Positions 6,402 to 60,794 of a DNA stretch of 64,000 nucleotides are shown piece after piece (within the stretch, counting starts at the first letter, position 1; every line of letters begins with the position of its first letter). The notes below the pieces were generated by a model that saw only the letters and a program-made list of their open reading frames with translations, made no database searches and was not told where the DNA came from. The position numbers and the translations under genes are program-made. This stretch comes from a virus (Duplodnaviria > Caudoviricetes), in the IMG/VR virus record IMGVR_UViG_3300033463_006479, positions 64,001 to 128,000 of that record. One strand, 5' to 3'.

Positions 6402-7861
6402 AAATCTAATGAAAACTACGAAAAACGTATAAAAACAAACCCGTATAAATATATTATAGTTTAATGCTATTTATATAATGAAACGAAAGTGGAGAGTCGT
6501 TTCAAAATAGAATAAGATATATACAGAGGTTTTATCCTTGTCGGTACTCTCCACATTACTACCACAAGTTTAATGCCTCTTTTTTATTGATATGTTGCGA
6601 GGAATCAAGGTAAGGTTATATCCGAACAAGGAACAGCAGGCAAGACTGAATCAAGTTCTTGGTTGTTACCGTTTTGTGTATAACAAGACGCTCGAACTCA
6701 AACGCAATGCTTATGATGAAGACAAAACAACTCTTGGATTAACTGACATTTCAAAATGGTTTCACGGAACATTATTGAAAGACGAGAACTACACTTGGTT
6801 GCAGGAGCAGAACACAAAGGTGATGAAGCAGTCAATCAGACAAATGCTTGACGCTTATTCAAAGTTTTTCAAACAACACAACGGATTTCCGAAGTTCAAA
6901 TCCAAGAAAGACAAGCAGTCAGCACTGTTTCCGTCAGAAGCGATTTCCAAACGCAACACGTTCAATGAAAGAAAAATAACGCTGACTCAAGACTTAAAGG
7001 ACATAAGATTCAGATGTTCGGACTTGTATTACAAGAGACTTCAAGACCACAAGGACAAGATAAGAAGTGCGACCGTTTCGAGAACCAAGAGCGGCAACTA
7101 CTTCTTATCCATCCTTGTTGACATCCCGCAGAATGAACTTATCAAGTTCAAGCATACCAAGCAATGCGTTGGCATTGACCTCGGAGTCAAGGATTTTGTA
7201 ATCACAAGTGACGGTGAGGTCTTTGAAAACAAACACTTTTTCAAGAAGCAAGAAAGAAAAGTCAAAAGATTACAGAGGCAGCAGTCAAGAAAACAGAAAG
7301 GTTCGCACAACCAAGAGAAACAACGTGTCAGAATCGCAAAGGCGTTTGAAAGACTGACCAATCAGAAAGACGCTTACATCCATTCGGTTGTAAATGCTTT
7401 GCTATCCTTGTATGACTTGGTTTGTATGGAGGACTTGAATGTTCAAGGAATGCTGAAGAACCACAAACTTGCAAAGGCAATCCAAGAAGTTGGTTTCTAC
7501 AAGTTCAAGCAGATTTTACTTGACAAGGCAAATGTAAATGACAAGCAAGTCGTGTTGGTTGACCGTTTCTATCCGAGCAGTAAGACCTGCCACACGTGTG
7601 GTTACATCAAGAAAGACTTGACTTTGAGCGACCGTGAATGGGTCTGCCCTATTTGTGGTGAACACCACGACAGAGATGTGAATGCAGCGATTAACATCTT
7701 GTGTGAAGGTTTAAGAATAATAGGTGTCCGTAGCACCGAATTTACGCTTGCGGACTGCCCAACTATGGATGACCGTCTGGCAACAGACCTAAAAAGTAGT
7801 GGCAGGTTGAAACAAGAAAGAAGGACTAATAATTCCAGTTTTATTAGATTTTTCTATACGG
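6392..7861 (+). mobile_element. Non-autonomous TnpB-only element (IS607/IS200-605-like)
   Basis: Left end after AACAG is homologous to the left end of the element at 59813; imperfect inverted ends (gaaaatctaatgaaaact / agttttattagattttt); no tnpA; right boundary approximate. Confidence 0.6.
6479..6586 (+). ncRNA. Conserved structured RNA (two hairpins with complementary loops, then U-tract) upstream of tnpB
   Basis: Near-identical copy at 59620-59726(-) with compensatory changes in paired regions. Confidence 0.6.
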
Positions 7862-7893
7862 TTCGTTTGAATTTGACAGATAATATTGTTTAA
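6592..7893 (+). CDS. tnpB: TnpB RNA-guided endonuclease (IS605 OrfB type)
   Basis: HTH start (KVRLYPNKEQ..GCYRFVYN), RuvC-I GIDLGVKD, RuvC-II EDL, Zn ribbon CHTCG..CPICG, RuvC-III DRDVNAAINI. Confidence 0.92.
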   Translation: MLRGIKVRLYPNKEQQARLNQVLGCYRFVYNKTLELKRNAYDEDKTTLGLTDISKWFHGTLLKDENYTWLQEQNTKVMKQSIRQMLDAYSKFFKQHNGFPKFKSKKDKQSALFPSEAISKRNTFNERKITLTQDLKDIRFRCSDLYYKRLQDHKDKIRSATVSRTKSGNYFLSILVDIPQNELIKFKHTKQCVGIDLGVKDFVITSDGEVFENKHFFKKQERKVKRLQRQQSRKQKGSHNQEKQRVRIAKAFERLTNQKDAYIHSVVNALLSLYDLVCMEDLNVQGMLKNHKLAKAIQEVGFYKFKQILLDKANVNDKQVVLVDRFYPSSKTCHTCGYIKKDLTLSDREWVCPICGEHHDRDVNAAINILCEGLRIIGVRSTEFTLADCPTMDDRLATDLKSSGRLKQERRTNNSSFIRFFYTVRLNLTDNIV

Positions 7894-12041: not shown

Positions 12042-13784
12042 GTTGTAAATAGCAAACAAGCATAGCCATTCAACATTAATGGGTATAATACTTCAAGGTC
12101 TTTCACAGTTGTAAATAACAAACAAGCATAGCAATTCAACATTCGTCTATCCAAAAATTCACTGTGTCGTACAGTTGTAAATAGCATACAAACATAGCCA
12201 TTCAACATTTGTGTAACCTAAAGACCTTGGACAAGTCTTGTTGTAAATGGCATACAAACATAGCCATTCAACATTACGTTGCCCGTTGAGAAATTGGAGA
12301 CCTGTTGTAAATAGCATATAAACATAGCCATTCAACATTAACATCAAAAGACGCTGTGTCACTCATACGGTTGTAAATAGCATACAAACATAGCCATTCA
12401 ACATTAAGAAATGCCTTGAACTGCTCTACCGTTGGGTTGTAAATAGCATATAAGCATAGCCATTCAACATTTGTGTAACTTAAAGACCTTGGACAAGTCT
12501 TGTTGTAAATGGCATACAAACATAGCCATTCAACAATTGAAATCCACCAACTTAATTCCGTCACGATGTTGTAAATGGCATACAAACATAGCCATTCAAC
12601 ATTGATTTCAACAAAAAGGAAATTAGAAAAATCGTTGTAAATGGCATACAAACATAGCCATTCAACAATCAAAATTCTGACAAATTCTATCATTTGTATG
12701 TTGTAAATAGCACACAAACATAGCCATTCAACAATCTCAAAAGATTGACAAAAGCAAGCAATATCGTTGTAAATAGCATACAAACATAGCCATTCAACAA
12801 TACTTCTGCAAGAAATCCTTGCTCACCATATGTTGTAAATAGCATACAAACATAGCCATTCAACAATCTCATTCCAAGCAGATTTGCCACTTTTAGCTGT
12901 AAATAGCATACAAACATAGCCATTCAACAATCTCATTCCAAGCAGATTTGCCACTTTTAGTTGTAAATAGCATACAAACATAGCCATTCAACAATCAATC
13001 GGTTGTAACAGAAATTCCTCTAAAGTTGTAAATAGCATACAAACATAGCCATTCAACAATTCAATTATATAAGGATGGGATGAGGGCTGCGTTGTAAATA
13101 GCATACAAACATAGCCATTCAACAATCATTGTTGTCGAGTTTGGTAATTTCCTTGTGTTGTAAATAGCACACAAACATAGCCATTCAACAATATTCTCCA
13201 ACTTGTCTCATTCCAATCAGCGTTGTAAATAGCACACAAACATAGCCATTCAACAATATCATTCAGTCGTTCATCTTGTCCTCACAGTTGTAAATAGCAT
13301 ACAAACATAGCCATTCAACAATCTCCCTTCCTCAATCAGTTTGAGTTTCACCGTTGTAAATAGCATACAAACATAGCCATTCAACAATTGCTGTTTACGT
13401 CTCTCATTCTTTGCCATCGTTGTAAATAGCATACAAACATAGCCATTCAACAATGCATTCTTTTTGAATCCGCTTATGTTTTCTGTTGTAAATAGCATAC
13501 AAACATAGCCATTCAACAATCATAAACTTAAACAAAGGAGACATTCGTACGTTGTAAATAGCATACAAACATAGCCATTCAACAATAGGAAGTCGAGGAA
13601 TACAAGGTGCGAGAGAGTTGTAAATAGCATACAAACATAGCCATTCAACAATTACATCAAGGAAGGAGGTGCTTATGAGCTGGTTGTAAATAGCATACAA
13701 ACATAGCCATTCAACAATAACCAACTTGCTGTGTTTCGCAAGATTCTCGTTGTAAATAGCATACAAACATAGCCATTCAACAAT
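12042..13784 (-). CRISPR. CRISPR array, 27 repeats of 36 nt, 26 spacers of 28-30 nt
   Basis: Repeat (minus strand) ATTGTTGAATGGCTATGTTTGTATGCTATTTACAAC; degenerate repeats at the low-coordinate (trailer) end; conserved repeats and AT-rich leader 13785-13898 next to the cas gene. Confidence 0.98.
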
Positions 13785-13898
13785 ATATTCTTTTCATTTC
13801 ATTGTATATCAATAAAATGAAATGGGTTATCTCTTACAAAAATGCTTGTTTGTTATACAATATGTCAAAGAACGCTTTATTTTTCAATCAGTAATAAA

Positions 13899-16229
13899 TT
13901 ATTTTGCTGATTTTGTGAGTTCGTCATATTCTTCTTGGGTCAATACTTTAACATACCCGTTTCTGTTCAATTCACCAAAAACGGTTGCTTGCGGAAGTCT
14001 TTTTTTGAATTTTGTCTGAATCATAAACTCGGCAGAATTGTAGCAGTTTTTGTCGGTTTGCTTTTTCGTGAAAACATCACGCAGATTTTTTGTAATGTCT
14101 CTGATGTTCCGTGCTGCGTTGTTGTCTGCGTTCATTCCGTTGAGATGCTGCTCTTGTATTTTACGAAGCACTCGCTTGTTTATAAACTTGACAACCTTTT
14201 TTGTTTTTCCGTTATCGCACTTTTCAGTATATTCCAAAAGATATAATTTTCGTGTTTTGCTGTCAATCTGTGATGTGAACGATGAAGGTATAAATACCGT
14301 ATTCATTGTGTTATTGTTTGTGAGTTGTGCGAACTTGTCTTTGACATCAGCAAAATGAATTGCTTTGATGAAAGAGTTATAAAACGTGCTTTCTTTGTTG
14401 CGTTTGATTCCTTCATTGGTGATTGTGAAATTCATAATATTGCCAGCATCGTCAAGTTCTGGCCTATAACACATATATACATCATTCCATTCTTTTAAGT
14501 TCCACTCATCTTTCGGTTTTCCGAGTAATTTGCGGTAATTGAGAAGTGATTTGATGCTTGGCAGTCTGCGCTTTTTTTCAAATTGCGATGATGTCAAATA
14601 CTCAACGCCAATGGTGTCGTAGCCATTATTTTTAATGACGTTGAACGCATAGGTTACGATGTTGTTACGGCAACCGATGATTTTCCGTTCAATTCTGTTT
14701 AGTTTGACAAGCATTTCTTTTGCTGACGGCTCGTTGATGAAGTCGCTTTTGTAAACTTCATCAGGATTGTCTGTTTTACCGTGAGCCAAATCATATTCTT
14801 GCTGCTTGCGGTTATACGCTTCTTTTATCTTGAAATAAGATATGTACTGCGCACGTAACTTCTGTGTTGAGCCAAGGTAGAATTTGATTTTGTGGTCATC
14901 TTTGTATCGTTTCTCAAGTTTCTCAAAAACATCCTGCATAGCAAGTTCTCTTTTGCAAAGTATGCTTTTTTCGGTGTCTGTGGCACGGGCAAAAAGCGAG
15001 TCCAATTCTGTGATTCCAAATGTTGCGTATTTGGAGAGTTCTATGTATTGGTTAAGCTCTTCGTCACTCGTTATGGTTTTTCTGAAATTCTTATCGGAAA
15101 GAAATTCCTTATACAGATTAACATAACCTTTGACTTTGCCTTTGTCCTCAATACTGGAATTGAGCATTGAGTGCTTTATGTTGATATCCACGCCAACAAT
15201 GTTTTTCGGCAAATTCGGCTGTTTTTCATAATTGTAATCGGCTGTCAGTGCGACAAAAAGATTTCCGTTTTCAATTTTGAATGTAAAACGCTCACCGTGC
15301 TTGTTGCATATGTCAATATTTTCGTTTTCAGCACGTTCTCCATTGCAAACAGAAACGAGCGCACGATGACCGAAAATGTTTATCATATATTTTCCACCAA
15401 ACAGATTTGTCGTGAGTTTATATGAAGTAAGGCCATCGGCTTCGATTTTTGTTAATTTCTTATTTAAGAGGATAACCATAGACAATCCATCCGCTCTTCT
15501 TTTGCAGCCACCAAAGTCTTTCAAGCATTCAACCCTTTTCTGATTGATATATTGCTCAACATCTTGTTTATGGTCTTTCCAATAATCAAACAATGTTTCC
15601 ATACGGAAGATTAGTGCGGTGTTCGGTTCTGACTTTTGTTTCATATAGTCTATTGACTTTTTCCAGTCATCATCATTTTTGAAGTCATTTTTCGTAACTT
15701 CATAAACGGTTTGTTCAAGAAGAACCTCATCGGTCGGCATATTTTCGGAACTGAACCTTTTGTATTTCGGGTTTATTTTTAGAGTTGTCATTTTTGTGCG
15801 GTAGTTGCTTATGACATTATCAAAATACCCGTTTCTTCTGTATCCAGTTTCAAACAATGACAATAGGTTGCCGTTATAATTCTCTGGATTTATTTTCCTA
15901 ACAGCCTCAAACAGCAAATTGTCTGCGTGAGTTTTCGGACAGTCTGTGAAAAGGGTGTAAAGTGGCAAATCTGTTTTTTGTTCATCAATGAAATATGTGT
16001 AATACCCAACACCCTTGTTTATCTGTTTTTCTCCAACATATTTCAACAAATCACCGATAGTAACACTTGTCAGATTTTTGCAAATCCAGTCGGAAAGTTT
16101 GTTGTAATAGTTTATGTATTCGTCAATCGTTGGTTTCCATACACGTTCAATATCGTGTTTTGACATTTTGGCTTTCATTACGTATGCCTTTACGATTGTT
16201 TGATTGTCTGTTTTTTTGTGTGTTGCCAT
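13899..16229 (-). CDS. cas12L: Type V effector Cas-lambda (Cas12L)-like, ~776 aa
   Basis: Likely start MATHKKTDNQTIVK; motifs EYINYYNKLSDWI, YRRNGYF..VISNY.TK, FGGCKRR, RuvC-I GVDINIKH, RuvC-II EYLTSSQF, IHFADVKD, RuvC-III NADNNAARNI, matching my recollection of Cas-lambda; adjacent array. Confidence 0.88.
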   Translation of the reverse strand: MATHKKTDNQTIVKAYVMKAKMSKHDIERVWKPTIDEYINYYNKLSDWICKNLTSVTIGDLLKYVGEKQINKGVGYYTYFIDEQKTDLPLYTLFTDCPKTHADNLLFEAVRKINPENYNGNLLSLFETGYRRNGYFDNVISNYRTKMTTLKINPKYKRFSSENMPTDEVLLEQTVYEVTKNDFKNDDDWKKSIDYMKQKSEPNTALIFRMETLFDYWKDHKQDVEQYINQKRVECLKDFGGCKRRADGLSMVILLNKKLTKIEADGLTSYKLTTNLFGGKYMINIFGHRALVSVCNGERAENENIDICNKHGERFTFKIENGNLFVALTADYNYEKQPNLPKNIVGVDINIKHSMLNSSIEDKGKVKGYVNLYKEFLSDKNFRKTITSDEELNQYIELSKYATFGITELDSLFARATDTEKSILCKRELAMQDVFEKLEKRYKDDHKIKFYLGSTQKLRAQYISYFKIKEAYNRKQQEYDLAHGKTDNPDEVYKSDFINEPSAKEMLVKLNRIERKIIGCRNNIVTYAFNVIKNNGYDTIGVEYLTSSQFEKKRRLPSIKSLLNYRKLLGKPKDEWNLKEWNDVYMCYRPELDDAGNIMNFTITNEGIKRNKESTFYNSFIKAIHFADVKDKFAQLTNNNTMNTVFIPSSFTSQIDSKTRKLYLLEYTEKCDNGKTKKVVKFINKRVLRKIQEQHLNGMNADNNAARNIRDITKNLRDVFTKKQTDKNCYNSAEFMIQTKFKKRLPQATVFGELNRNGYVKVLTQEEYDELTKSAK

Positions 16230-16278
16230 AAATTGATGGTTTATGTGGTTTATATATGAGTTACTTATTTTTTCTGTA

Positions 16279-17448
16279 TCAAAAATATTGGTTGTTATTT
16301 GATTTTTTTCTGATAAGAATACGTTTATAAACACCTTTACCATTAATCATAAATTGCCCACCAGCAACACCATCTCCGCCGTTTCCGTTAAGGTCGTGCT
16401 CGTGTCCAATAATTTCAATTTGATTTGGATTATAATGCTCTAAAATTGTAATAGGAACACCCATTACTCCGTTGTAATCAATAGGAATAAAATCAAGTTT
16501 ATCCACATTTATTGCATCATAGTTATCATATTTGGGGTAGTCTACAAGATTATATTTTTTTTGTTCTTGCGGATAAAATAGTTCTTTTCGTTTGTTGTGT
16601 TCGACATTTGTGAACCAATTGCACAATCCTAATTTCTGATGCACGATACCATCTACCATATATTGACTTTTTTCATCAACAATTTTATTCAACGGAGTTA
16701 TGAAATCCGTTGGTGTCGTGTATCCAAGCCAAAGTTTGTTATCTTTTATATATTGAAAAATTTCTTTATACGTTATGGCGTTTTTGTTACCGATAATAAT
16801 GAATTTTTTTTCCAATTTTATAATTTGATTGACAAATTGGCGAAATAAACTAAATGGTGGGTTTGTGACGACAACATCACATTCTTTCATTATCTCAATA
16901 CACTCTTTACTCGAAAAAGAGCCGTCACCATTTAATTTGGTTACAACAAATTCACTCTCATCAACAAACATTGAATCATCGCATTCCCCGTTATATTCAA
17001 AAGCCAACCCGTTTATGCCAAGTTCTTTTTTTATACCATTACCATTTTTTATATATTGTGTGATTACAAGTTTTTTTATGCCCCATTCCTTAAAGTGGTA
17101 TGTGAAAAAATTAACAAATTCGCTTCTGCCTATATTTAAAACTTTGTCACAAGGCATATACACAATTTTTCCTTTGAAAAAATTTTTGTAATGATAAAGC
17201 TCTTTATCAATATCTTCAAATGTCGTATAGAACTCATCGTATTTGTTTTTTTTCGCCTCTCGCAAATTGCTGTTTTTTTGTTTTGACGGTTTTCCAAGAA
17301 ATTCTGAAAAATCAGCATTGAGCGAAACTTTTGTCGGTGCAATGATTTTATTTTCCAGATATGTTTTAGAAAAACCTTTTTTTAAGTGAATGACGTATTT
17401 TCCAAGTATTGGATTATATATTTCTTCAAAATGTTCAGATTTTTCCAT
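16279..17448 (-). CDS. Adenine-specific methyltransferase, EcoRI family
   Basis: AKKNKYDEFYT, GDGSF.S.EC, VVTNPPFSLFR, YPKYDNYDAINV, GVMGVPIT motifs. Confidence 0.85.
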   Translation of the reverse strand: MEKSEHFEEIYNPILGKYVIHLKKGFSKTYLENKIIAPTKVSLNADFSEFLGKPSKQKNSNLREAKKNKYDEFYTTFEDIDKELYHYKNFFKGKIVYMPCDKVLNIGRSEFVNFFTYHFKEWGIKKLVITQYIKNGNGIKKELGINGLAFEYNGECDDSMFVDESEFVVTKLNGDGSFSSKECIEIMKECDVVVTNPPFSLFRQFVNQIIKLEKKFIIIGNKNAITYKEIFQYIKDNKLWLGYTTPTDFITPLNKIVDEKSQYMVDGIVHQKLGLCNWFTNVEHNKRKELFYPQEQKKYNLVDYPKYDNYDAINVDKLDFIPIDYNGVMGVPITILEHYNPNQIEIIGHEHDLNGNGGDGVAGGQFMINGKGVYKRILIRKKSNNNQYF

Positions 17449-19965: not shown

Positions 19966-20033
19966 CAAAAATACAACTAAATTTCATATAATCTACAAAA
20001 AATTTCAAAAAGTTATCAACAAAGTTATCAACA
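19966..20033 (-). promoter_or_regulatory. Early promoter (TAnnTTTG -7 box + tandem TGTTGATAA boxes), copy 1 of 8
   Basis: caaaaata at 19966; ttatcaaca at 20013 and 20025. Confidence 0.7.
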
Positions 20034-20057: not shown

Positions 20058-20065
20058 TATAAATA
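20058..20065 (+). promoter_or_regulatory. T4-type late promoter TATAAATA
   Basis: Upstream of portal gene. Confidence 0.65.
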
Positions 20066-57263: not shown

Positions 57264-57401
57264 ATAAGGCGGATATATTACCGACAGCCCGCCACTGTCC
57301 GCCGACACATACGATTCGGTGTTGAATGCGGCAACCTATCGGTTGGCTTCAAGAATGGTACGTTCCAGACTACTTGAGCTCATTTCATCTGACTTTTATT
57401 G

Positions 57402-57484
57402 CGGAGAGCAGTGTACTCGAAACACACTCCATAGGAGCAGCACGTTTAGCAGACGGCTACAGCAGCCTCACTGTTTTACTCTCC
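57402..57484 (-). tRNA. tRNA-Ser(GCT), atypical D/T arms
   Basis: cgt-ctGCTaa-acg; ggagagt/gctctcc acceptor; long variable arm. Confidence 0.65.
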
Positions 57485-57492
57485 ATAAAATT

Positions 57493-57640
57493 GCTTCCAC
57501 GACTGGACTCGAACCAGCAGTACCGCCGCTAATCGTGTTGTCGGCGGGCAACCTTTACGTCTCACTCCCAAGACTACTATCTAACAGACCACGACATCTG
57601 TATCAAGCGTAGGTATACCAAATTCCCTATCACGCAGAAG
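57493..57640 (-). ncRNA. tRNA-like RNA with ~95-nt insert replacing the anticodon arm
   Basis: Acceptor cttctgcg/cgtggaag, D-arm tagg-gaatttggtata-ccta, T-arm gctgg-ttcgagt-ccagt. Confidence 0.55.
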
Positions 57641-57643
57641 TTG

Positions 57644-57718: not shown

Positions 57719-57855
57719 AAAAAACACGCCAAACCAGTCTTGTATCGTCAAATTAAACTAACCGCTGGCACAAACCATATGGCATTTTATGGTTGCTTTT
57801 CAAAGGCCAGCAATGTGCCCACAACGAAGGGACACAAACTTTGGCGTTTGTTTTG

Positions 57856-57929
57856 TGCCGCTGGGTGGATTCGAACCACCGTCTCCTCCTTATGAGAGAG
57901 GCGCAAGAAACCACCTCCGCTACAGCGAC
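57856..57929 (-). tRNA. tRNA-Met/Ile2(CAT)
   Basis: cctct-ctCATaa-ggagg. Confidence 0.75.
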
Positions 57930-57970
57930 AGAATTAGTCGCACTATCGCAGGACTATAAGCTCCGAAGAA

Positions 57971-59611
57971 CTAAACATAGTCAAAAGTGGTCACACCACT
58001 TTCACTACGTTCACCATCTGATTTGTTCATCAGACTTCTTCGGAACGACAACAGCACATCTTTAACTTTCTCACGTTTGAGTTTTCTCGGTTCGTATGCG
58101 CCGTTGCCAAGTCGTTTTAAGAGCGAATCACGCAACACGGTTACGGTCACTCTGTTCTTTATATTGACAGATGCGTTGTGGTCTGCATTGTCCTTATGCC
58201 CGCATTCAACGCATTCAAAGGTCTCTTGGCTCGGTCTGTTTTCATCTGCGATGCAACCACAAATCGGACACATCTTTGAGGTGTAACTCGCCTGCACTGT
58301 TGACAATGCGATACCATATTTCCTTGCAATGTGTTCAACCTCATCTTTTAGACTGCTCAATCCGAGGAACTTGACCTTTCTATTGTAGTTTATATCCTCG
58401 TTGTCTTTATCCTTGATGTAACACCTTCCAAAACCATTGTCAAGGTCTTCCATAACGATGTGGTCAACACCATCCAACATCAACGACTTGCACATCTTTG
58501 AAATGAGTTCTTGTTCGGATTTCTGCATCTTCATCTTGAGTGTGTCAAGTTTCTGCTGTTTGCGCTTGCCGATGGTGTAGTTCTTGTCTTTCTTCAGTTC
58601 GTCCACTTTCAATGACAGTTTGCAGAAGTCATTGACTAACTTACGGTTGTAGTCATAGGCAGTTTCGTTTGACAGACTGAAGAGATTGTGCTTGCAGTTC
58701 ACGTCAATTCCTACCACGTTGTCTCCTGCTTCTGGTATGTATCTCTGACCATCCTTGCACAAGTTGATATTGACTTGATGGTATTTTTCGTTGAATGTAA
58801 GCACATATTCGTAGTCGGGATTGGATTTGCGGTAGTCATTCATACTTCCGTGCCAATCCTTGTTGAACCTCACTGGGATGTCAAACGACTTTCTTTCGAT
58901 TCCAGACAGACTGACAAAGGAGTTGATTACCGAACCAAACTTCTTGTTGTAGTCAATGATTCTCGTCTTCCTGCACCTGCCTCCGAATGACAATGACTTG
59001 AACTCAATCGGATGCTCGGAATAACAATCGATGATTCTGTTTCGTTTCCGCAAGGCAAGTTCCATAAGTCTGTCAAAACCGAACTTGTTACAGCAACGTA
59101 TGATGTTGTTGTAGAAGTCTCGCTTCTTGTCATCGCAGGTCTCCAACTGCTTGATGATATATTCCAATGTGTTATCGTTTCCGTATCTTGCAAGATAAGT
59201 CAGACAGATTGACAATGGTGTTTTGCTATTCTCCGTTACGACATTCTTCAAGTCGCCTTTCTTGTTCTTCTTGGTGTCACGCTTGTAGAACTCAAATCCG
59301 ACAAATCTTATAACTTCAAAGTCAAGGTGTTTTCGGATTGCTTCAAACTTGTTCTGGTAGCAGTTGAACACTTGTGTATATAGTTGCATATCAAACGAAC
59401 TCGGAATGGCATCCTTGTATCTCGCCCTCATCCCCTTCAAGAAGTCGAATTTTGAATATTCAAGGTACTTTTCAAGATTGGAGTTCACATATTCGGAAAC
59501 AAGGTTCTTATGGTCACGCAGCATAACAGCAAACGAATGTAAATCGTCATACTTCTGACGTGTTAAGTCGTTTGACTTGAATGTTTTTGTGTATTTGCTG
59601 TCTATGACCAT
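57971..59611 (-). CDS. Large divergent TnpB-like RuvC nuclease (~546 aa)
   Basis: RuvC-I VVGIDVNCKH, RuvC-II VMEDL, YTSKMCPICG..F.CVECG Zn ribbon, RuvC-III NADHNASVNI. Confidence 0.85.
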   Translation of the reverse strand: MVIDSKYTKTFKSNDLTRQKYDDLHSFAVMLRDHKNLVSEYVNSNLEKYLEYSKFDFLKGMRARYKDAIPSSFDMQLYTQVFNCYQNKFEAIRKHLDFEVIRFVGFEFYKRDTKKNKKGDLKNVVTENSKTPLSICLTYLARYGNDNTLEYIIKQLETCDDKKRDFYNNIIRCCNKFGFDRLMELALRKRNRIIDCYSEHPIEFKSLSFGGRCRKTRIIDYNKKFGSVINSFVSLSGIERKSFDIPVRFNKDWHGSMNDYRKSNPDYEYVLTFNEKYHQVNINLCKDGQRYIPEAGDNVVGIDVNCKHNLFSLSNETAYDYNRKLVNDFCKLSLKVDELKKDKNYTIGKRKQQKLDTLKMKMQKSEQELISKMCKSLMLDGVDHIVMEDLDNGFGRCYIKDKDNEDINYNRKVKFLGLSSLKDEVEHIARKYGIALSTVQASYTSKMCPICGCIADENRPSQETFECVECGHKDNADHNASVNIKNRVTVTVLRDSLLKRLGNGAYEPRKLKREKVKDVLLSFRRSLMNKSDGERSESGVTTFDYV

Positions 59612-59619
59612 ATTACAAT

Positions 59620-59726
59620 AAAAAAGAGGCATTAAACTTGCGGCAGTAATGCGAGGAGTGCCATCAAGGATAAAACCTCTGTATATCTTTATTGTTATTT
59701 TGAAACGACTCCTCGCTTTCGTTTCA
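59620..59726 (-). ncRNA. Second copy of the conserved kissing-loop RNA upstream of tnpB-like gene
   Basis: gcgaggagt/actcctcgc replaces gtggagagt/actctccac of copy 1. Confidence 0.6.
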
Positions 59727-59897
59727 TTATATAAATAGTCTTAAACTATAATATATTTATACGAGTTACTTTTGAACATTTTTGACTACTTTTGAATAGG
59801 TTTATCAACTTCTGTTGCTATCCCAAAGCGTCCGACTTCACGGAAGGAATCCTCACGTGCTGAACTCCTATAATATCATTAAAAATATGAAAAACTT

Positions 59898-59981
59898 GGG
59901 CGTAGGGTGGGATTCGAACCCACATATAGAATAAATCCACAGAGCCACAATCTGTTGCATAGCCATTCTGCCACCTACGCC
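59898..59981 (-). tRNA. tRNA-His(GTG) with unusually long variable region
   Basis: acaga-ttGTGgc-tctgt; G-1; ~15-nt variable region. Confidence 0.75.
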
Positions 59982-60722: not shown

Positions 60723-60794
60723 GTAGCCACAGCAGGACTCGAACCTGCGGCCTGCTGGTTGTCCAGCTTATCTACCACTGATATATGCGGCTAC
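60723..60794 (-). ncRNA. tRNA-like RNA with a 4-nt anticodon loop
   Basis: gctgg-acaa-ccagc; D and T arms nearly identical to tRNA-Ile at 53926. Confidence 0.6.

Follow-up and report, generated by a model that had tools for sequence, protein, structure and literature searches.

The window analysed here is a stretch of 64,000 nucleotides (positions 64,001 to 128,000) of the 192-kb IMG/VR record IMGVR_UViG_3300033463_006479, which comes from a huge T4-like rumen/gut phage with portal and terminase genes. It contains a Cas-lambda gene with a CRISPR array and, on the minus strand at 57971..59611, an open reading frame (ORF) for a protein of 546 amino acids (aa) that resembles the transposon nuclease TnpB. 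What is this second protein, and how is it related to the Cas-lambda encoded in the same genome? The original prediction, made from the nucleotide sequence, took it for a candidate compact RNA-guided nuclease that may belong to the transposon-encoded clade from which Cas-lambda arose. The analysis presented here indicates that the ORF very probably encodes an intact, RNA-guided TnpB nuclease, carried by a transposase-less IS607-type element of a huge phage.

The gene and its protein

The longest ORF at this position spans 57971..59632 on the minus strand (553 aa). The start that is kept across copies of the gene is the ATG at 59611, which opens the sequence M-V/I-I-x-S-K-Y-T-K and bears out the proposed length of 546 aa; the ATG upstream of it is missing from the other copies. 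The ORF call, the domain models and the alignment all describe 57971..59611 as a tnpB-like gene. The three catalytic acidic residues of the RuvC domain are present, as had been predicted, at D303 (58703-58705), E388 (58448-58450) and D477 (58181-58183), and a four-cysteine (CCCC) zinc finger is encoded at 58202-58270; all were placed on the minus strand by alignment, in the numbering of the 546-aa protein. D303, N305, E388, D477 and the cysteines C448, C451, C467 and C470 are invariant in 58 diverse relatives, down to 25% identity. The protein therefore has both the RuvC D-E-D triad and the zinc-ribbon TNB domain of a TnpB, and it matches the Pfam model Cas12f1-like_TNB (PF07282) with 61.1 bits (cut-off 26.3). 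A catalytically dead regulator of the TldR type was considered and ruled out, as the triad is invariant. The AlphaFold2 (AF2) model has a mean predicted local distance difference test (pLDDT) score of 92.5. The protein is about 140 aa longer than a typical TnpB because its REC lobe is enlarged.

Element boundaries and distribution

Comparison of copies places the gene within an element of 1863 bp (57962..59824, minus strand), a derivative of an IS607-family insertion sequence that lacks tnpA. In both copies of this genome and in five or more from IMG/VR, homology starts at GGGATAGCAACAG (59824) and stops at ...TTTGACTATGTTTAGTTCTTCGGA (57962), with unrelated flanks on either side; as the trinucleotide GGA is common to both junctions, each boundary can be placed only to within 3 nt. 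The left-end terminus GGGATAGCAACAG (59812..59824, minus strand) is kept in the tnpA-less copies A, B, L003, L004 and L006, and the flanking base before it is T or C, the Y of a YGGGA junction motif. The first ~85 nt of the left end are nearly invariant and include two direct TTCAAAAGTA boxes (59767..59796, minus strand), which are candidate TnpA-binding or regulatory repeats. At the other extremity, the right end TTCTTCGGA is invariant in 22 copies.

The second copy in the 192-kb record is 89% identical at the amino acid level and has unrelated flanks. A search with the right-end motif found 18 distinct copies, each with its own right flank, and hence at least 18 insertion contexts in related huge phages. 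The TnpB family as a whole comprises 1986 matches, with 144 clusters at 50% identity at E below 1e-30. A search of 185,579 species genomes yielded only three full-length relatives, and the 50,697 phage records of GenBank yielded none; a megablast search of the locus against the GenBank phages gave no match, and tblastn gave only C-terminal matches to ordinary TnpBs. The family is nearly confined to huge-phage contigs. One of the three full-length relatives, a 76%-identical copy, is on a contig of 360 kb (JBGVNW010000068.1) that was assigned to the metagenome-assembled genome of a ‘Bacilli bacterium’ and is probably a mis-binned huge-phage contig. A further, 47%-identical member (L012:641-2260), with a distant IS607 TnpA upstream, translates only when TAG is read as Q, so that its contig belongs to a stop-codon-recoded phage.

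The link to IS607 is provided by the relatives of the element. Upstream of P0124, which is the closest 50%-cluster representative (62% identity), and separated from it by 12 bp, is a gene for a 206-aa protein with a MerR-type helix-turn-helix and a resolvase domain, which matches the NCBIfam model transpos_IS607 (NF033518) with 186.5 bits (cut-off 110). TnpA also adjoins P0122 (24 contigs), P0042 and P0041 (74-81% identity) and two further loci (L058 and L061), which agrees with the earlier view that the nuclease is transposon-encoded. The arrangement in these relatives, with a serine-recombinase TnpA directly upstream of tnpB, is likewise that of the IS607 elements with TnpB (CboIStron and others), a group that is compared here together with its tnpB-only, IS1341-type derivatives. 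In copies with at least 84% identity, the two in this genome among them, a leader of ~190 nt takes the place of tnpA, and no serine recombinase adjoins the present gene. Since TnpA is absent here, yet adjoins relatives at 62-81% identity, the copy is a non-autonomous derivative rather than a complete IS607.

Insertion site, predicted guide and target-adjacent motif

The element interrupts a tRNA cluster, with tRNA-His (59898-59980) on one side and tRNA-Met (57855-57929) on the other; its right flank extends over 32 nt, up to the 5′ end of tRNA-Met at 57929. The uninterrupted target is found in three other phage contigs (L079, L080 and L081), where YGGGA is followed by a match to the right flank at 27-28 of 28 positions; all three targets are in tRNA clusters and read ...CGCT(C/T)GGGA-GCT(T/G)ATAGTCCTGCGATAGTGCGACTAA. 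To within 1 nt in a T-run, these empty sites consist of the left flank, a single GGA and the right flank, with no duplication. It follows from this comparison that the element inserted at a GG-containing core without duplicating its target, and that YGGGA lies 5′ of the target. The absence of target-site duplication and of terminal inverted repeats, together with the GG-containing junctions, is as in IS607, for which a GG core and a G-rich TGGG target-adjacent motif (TAM) have been published (doi 10.1101/2023.11.20.567912); the junction motif here is YGGGA compared with that TGGG.

The comparison with the empty sites also indicates that the insertion split a structured-RNA-like motif, whose left half lies at 59825..59895 (minus strand) and whose right half lies at 57930-57961. 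The motif is ~110 nt long, with two hairpins followed by CGCTYGGGAGCTKATAGTCCTGCGATAGTGCGACTAA; it is kept in the tRNA clusters of several huge phages and is intact at L079:~500-625, L080:~1440-1565 and L081:~1940-2065. No Rfam family matches it, and Rfam reports nothing besides tRNAs in the window.

The predicted guide, based on flank comparison and on the empty sites, is GCTTATAGTCCTGCGATAGT, the first 20 nt of the right flank (57942..57961, minus strand). It had originally been placed so as to begin at TTCTTCGGAG. This position has to be revised, as TTCTTCGGA is the conserved right end of the element in 22 copies and uninterrupted targets exist elsewhere; the guide would start after TTCTTCGGA, at 57961 reading downward. 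A similar correction applies to the TAM, which had been expected to end in AACAG. That sequence lies within the conserved left-end terminus (59812..59824), and the junctions, the reconstructed donor joints and the three empty sites point instead to YGGGA. The guides of the two genome copies have no further match in this genome.

The omega-RNA-like scaffold, the leader and the promoter

A putative omega-RNA scaffold overlaps the 3′ end of the ORF (57962..58161, minus strand). The RNAalifold consensus for the last 200 nt of 22 copies has 57 pairs, of which 17 show compensatory changes, and the terminal TTCTTCGGA (57962-57970) pairs with TTCCGAAGA (58037-58045), about 80 nt upstream. The architecture, which ends exactly at the right end of the element, is as would be expected of an omega-RNA. 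The arrangement of TnpB and of IS607, in which the scaffold covers the 3′ end of tnpB as well as the right end and the guide comes from the right flank, is predicted here in silico. Because the catalytic residues are intact and the covarying, omega-RNA-like scaffold ends at the right end of the element, the 546-aa protein can be retained as a candidate compact RNA-guided nuclease, as first proposed.

The region upstream of the gene is also structured. The 5′ leader (59612..59748, minus strand) has a fold z-score of -3.6 and shows covariation. It contains a predicted hairpin (59700-59725) and a long-range stem between GCGAGGAGT (59708-59716) and ACTCCTCGC (59651-59659). Closer to the gene, 9 nt from the ATG, the stem AGAGG/CCUCU leads into a U-run (59620-59630); all of these features are on the minus strand. 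Among nine sequences, both sides of the 9-bp long-range stem change in seven of its nine pairs. Its covariation score is 0.397, compared with 0.177 in shuffled alignments (none of 500 shuffles reached 0.397), and the proportion of paired cells is 90.5%, which falls to 47-56% in controls with a slid partner. At a guess, the leader would serve in attenuation or translational control.

A TATAAATA box, the consensus of T4-type late promoters, lies at 59754..59761 (minus strand), 143 nt upstream of the tnpB start codon, and is kept in the tnpA-less copies. The window has 21 occurrences of the box where 4.3 would be expected (five-fold; 0 of 100 shuffles reached 21), and most of them are 15-35 nt upstream of gene starts, including those of portal and terminase, in the correct orientation. 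Examples are found at 20058, 23431, 45998, 47968, 49727, 62359 and 63373. This distribution fits that of T4-type late promoters. The present copy differs from IS607 in that it has no tnpA and carries in its stead a leader of 190 nt, which combines a phage late-type promoter with a covarying, pseudoknot-like RNA.

Proposed mechanism

In the proposed mechanism, the late-type phage promoter in the left end would drive a transcript comprising the structured leader, tnpB with the scaffold embedded in its last ~200 nt, and the right flank. TnpB would bind its own 3′ scaffold, with the first ~16-20 flank nucleotides serving as the guide; processing of the RNA by the nuclease itself has been described for ISDra2 TnpB (PMC10278001). 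The complex would then cut DNA in which a YGGGA-type motif abuts the flank sequence, i.e. the element-free allele. Such alleles occur in other phages, and recombinational repair from the occupied allele would copy the element in, by homing or retention. Transposition proper would need an IS607 serine recombinase in trans; as there is no TnpA in the genome record, the element could otherwise spread only by homing. The empty-site matches found in other phages suggest that the element homes, guided by RNA, from one co-infecting huge phage to another. At 546 aa, and with its scaffold defined and a guide position and G-rich TAM predicted, the protein is a candidate compact editor.

Several observations weigh against an RNA-guided TnpB of an IS607-type element. 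The protein scores 94.9 bits with the NCBIfam model guided_TnpB, below the cut-off of 100 (its relative P0124 clears it, with 102.5 bits), and 33.6 bits with IS607_TnpB, below the cut-off of 350; this low score, and the near-confinement of the family to huge-phage contigs, also set it apart from IS607 TnpBs. The models IS200_TnpB (43.3 bits, cut-off 425) and Cas12f2 (68.5 bits, cut-off 450) likewise remain below threshold. No IS607 TnpA was found in the 192-kb record, which is itself only 70% complete, and the sole resolvase-domain protein in it is invertase-like. The TAM is drawn from only five junction types and three empty sites. Finally, the occupied site (CGGA) and the empty site (GGGA) are one base apart, and because of this single-base difference it is unproven how the element avoids cutting its own site.

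Relation to Cas-lambda and Cas12f

The protein named Cas-lambda in the original prediction is genuine: its gene (13899-16343, minus strand) matches PDB entry 8DC2 with E 8e-126, and its true start is probably M39 (16229). It adjoins a CRISPR array at 12042-13788 with 27 repeats of ~36 nt and a period of 66 bp; the leader of the array is probably at the gene-proximal end, as the repeats degenerate toward 12046. The RuvC domain of Cas-lambda has been described as so divergent that it is not readily revealed by the primary sequence (bioRxiv 10.64898/2026.03.27.714800). For the type V effectors of phages, an origin from TnpB separate from that of their bacterial and archaeal counterparts has been proposed (PMC12141684); no source clade for Cas-lambda is named in the literature found.

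A specific relationship, in which the TnpB family would be the transposon sister or ancestor of Cas-lambda, adds to the RNA-guided TnpB explanation rather than replacing it. One line of evidence for it is structural. In a Foldseek search with the AF2 model, the top four matches are Cas-lambda entries (E 5e-17 to 2e-15), with AsCas12f behind (about 1e-12). VIA-align gives Z 20.3 for Cas-lambda 8DC2 (471 residues aligned, 17% identity), Z 16.2 for AsCas12f (360 residues, 14% identity) and Z 15.5 for ISDra2 TnpB. In both halves of the protein, the structure agrees best with Cas-lambda (8DC2, and Cas-lambda2, 9IZM-9IZS), and the region before RuvC-I is of comparable length (303 aa here, 348 aa in Cas-lambda). 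When the N-terminal WED/REC half was folded alone (pLDDT 95), it aligned with Cas-lambda at Z 14.1 (250 residues) and with Cas12f at Z 12.7 (169 residues), a margin of only 1.4. Of the transposon nucleases compared, the predicted fold is the most Cas-lambda-like.

Profile comparisons place the family between Cas-lambda and ordinary TnpB. With hhalign, it matches Cas-lambda with E 1.7e-17 and ordinary TnpB with E 1.7e-18 to 4e-32, and Cas-lambda and ordinary TnpB match each other with E 0.0034-0.044. The hidden Markov model (HMM) of the TnpB family matches all 11 Cas-lambdas, and the Cas-lambda HMM matches 117 of 271 family members, but none of 37 canonical phage TnpBs or 43 ordinary bacterial TnpBs. 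The curated TnpB models do not match Cas-lambda, and the Pfam TNB model matches 4 of 11 with E 0.0016 or weaker. The family therefore bridges Cas-lambda and ordinary TnpB by profile, and has the enlarged REC lobe in common with Cas-lambda. In trees confined to the TnpB family, Cas-lambda and ordinary TnpBs, the first two group together across a branch from the ordinary TnpBs, as the original prediction would have it. The Shimodaira-Hasegawa-like approximate likelihood ratio test (SH-aLRT) gives this branch a support of 99 with 60 rows, and the ultrafast bootstrap (UFBoot)/SH-aLRT values are 100/98 with 32 rows. In these trees Cas-lambda branches off as the sister of the family in its entirety and is not nested inside it. 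Its branch is long (1.8), which makes long-branch attraction possible, and since Cas12f, Cas-phi, type V-U and the other Cas12 types are not in the tree, this family cannot be claimed as the exclusive source clade of Cas-lambda.

The sequence itself gives a different ranking. The family HMM scores far higher on Cas12f-type sequences of the PDB (101, 86 and 81 bits) than on Cas-lambda (37 and 18 bits), so that by sequence profile the family is nearer to Cas12f. The Cas-lambda HMM also weakly matches Al3Cas12f (19 bits). A phmmer search with the 546-aa protein found no Cas-lambda chain at E up to 10; a search of IMG/VR with a Cas-lambda pattern found no relatives, and a profile search with the Cas-lambda alignment recovered only the same 10 Cas-lambdas at whole-database E-values. 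The only pairwise BLASTP match to Cas-lambda is a stretch of 24 aa at the RuvC-I motif (E 0.001). All eleven motifs quoted in the original prediction from the 546-aa protein, the Cas-lambda gene and a canonical TnpB are present where it had placed them, and the Cas-lambda parallels among them are of unequal value. In both families the RuvC-I motif, D-x-N-x-K-H, is invariant or almost invariant. The SFGGRCRK and RKQQKLD parallels look like chance, as their columns are not conserved in the TnpB family, and YTSQ and NAD.NA are common to TnpB and Cas12f generally.

The differences from Cas-lambda are considerable. The present gene is in a transposon context, with no CRISPR array within 40 kb of either element copy to supply an adjacent crRNA guide. 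The protein keeps the CCCC zinc finger, which is absent from Cas-lambda, and lacks the insertion of ~110 aa between RuvC-I and RuvC-II that forms a REC domain in Cas-lambda (the spacing from D to E is 85 aa here, 195 aa there). It is 546 aa long compared with about 750-780 aa, and the identity in structural alignments is 13-19%. Judged by its sequence, it is a homologue of Cas-lambda and not a member. With Cas12f (OsCas12f 9NZQ, AsCas12f 8J12, RhCas12f 9NZP and Un1Cas12f 7L48) it has the highest profile scores (101-60 bits, in the RuvC/TNB half) and the same zinc finger, in keeping with the Pfam match to Cas12f1-like_TNB. However, the structural Z of 15-16 involves about 110 fewer aligned residues than with Cas-lambda, RuvC-I reads GIDVN rather than GxDxG, and the CRISPR/tracrRNA association of Cas12f is not borne out, as there is no array.

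Taken with the occurrence of both families in one phage lineage, and here in one genome, these results make the claim that this family is the specific sister or ancestor of Cas-lambda a serious one that falls a little short of an even chance: the fold, hhalign and the tree speak for it, and the closeness of the family HMM to Cas12f and the composition of the tree speak against it. The route would have led, with the same degree of assurance, from a huge-phage IS607 TnpB with an enlarged REC lobe, by gain of the RuvC insertion, loss of the zinc finger and acquisition of a CRISPR array, to Cas-lambda. The stronger proposition, that Cas-lambda evolved from a transposon lineage still extant as the present IS607 TnpB clade of huge phages, ancestor type and descendant coexisting in a single genome, is put forward tentatively, and the odds are against it. 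If it is true, the CRISPR repeat of Cas-lambda would descend from the 3′ end of an omega-RNA, and the element would act in phages as an RNA-guided homing endonuclease, with guides that match conserved sites of competing phages. The CRISPR repeat (minus strand) and the invariant 3′ end of the scaffold (57962-58000) have TG[A/G]CTATGTTT in common, at 10 of 11 nt and similarly far from the spacer or guide; agreement as good as this arose in 50 of 3000 shuffles (p about 0.017), and the likeness is suggestive only. The profile bridge, the enlarged REC lobe and the presence in the same phages make the origin of Cas-lambda testable by phylogeny, structure and RNA comparison.

Alternative explanations

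A different possibility is that the gene has been domesticated and serves the phage, for instance in regulation or in RNA-guided attack on relatives that infect the same cell, its apparent mobility being historical. Its own late-type TATAAATA promoter and conserved structured leader would suit such a role, as would the lack of TnpA in the genome record and the match of the guide to a motif conserved in the tRNA clusters of other phages. There is a parallel in the T4 homing endonuclease SegB, which is likewise located in the tRNA region of related phages and directed against it. Yet the flank, and hence the guide, differs in every copy, which fits a guide defined passively by the insertion site; the ends are sharp and of the IS607 type, autonomous relatives exist, and the catalytic residues are intact, unlike those of nuclease-dead TldR-type regulators. 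Domestication is therefore improbable.

A stand-alone CRISPR effector (Cas12f-like, or a mini Cas-lambda) using the Cas-lambda array or a hidden one might be suggested by the Cas12f2 match, by the 27-repeat array in the same window and by the agreement of its repeat with the scaffold end, but with no array near either copy, the known array adjoining the Cas-lambda gene, a scaffold of its own ending at the transposon end and TnpA next to its relatives, this explanation is very improbable and was ruled out.

Other features of the window

The window also encodes a canonical IS200/IS605-type TnpB of 433 aa (6592-7893, plus strand), which scores 352 bits with the NCBIfam model IS200_TnpB. The huge phages of IMG/VR contain 39 loci related to it, and some contigs bear several copies. 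Between tRNA-Trp and tRNA-Val, at 57264-57642, there are T-arm-like sequences GGTTCGAGTCC that neither tool called as tRNA, and an extra tRNA at 60724-60792 was called by Rfam and is absent from the ARAGORN calls. A short intergenic tandem motif, AAAGTTATCAAC / TCAACAAAGTTA, recurs at 20005, 30828, 38881, 43468, 45925, 50841 and 55143, and may be a regulatory site.

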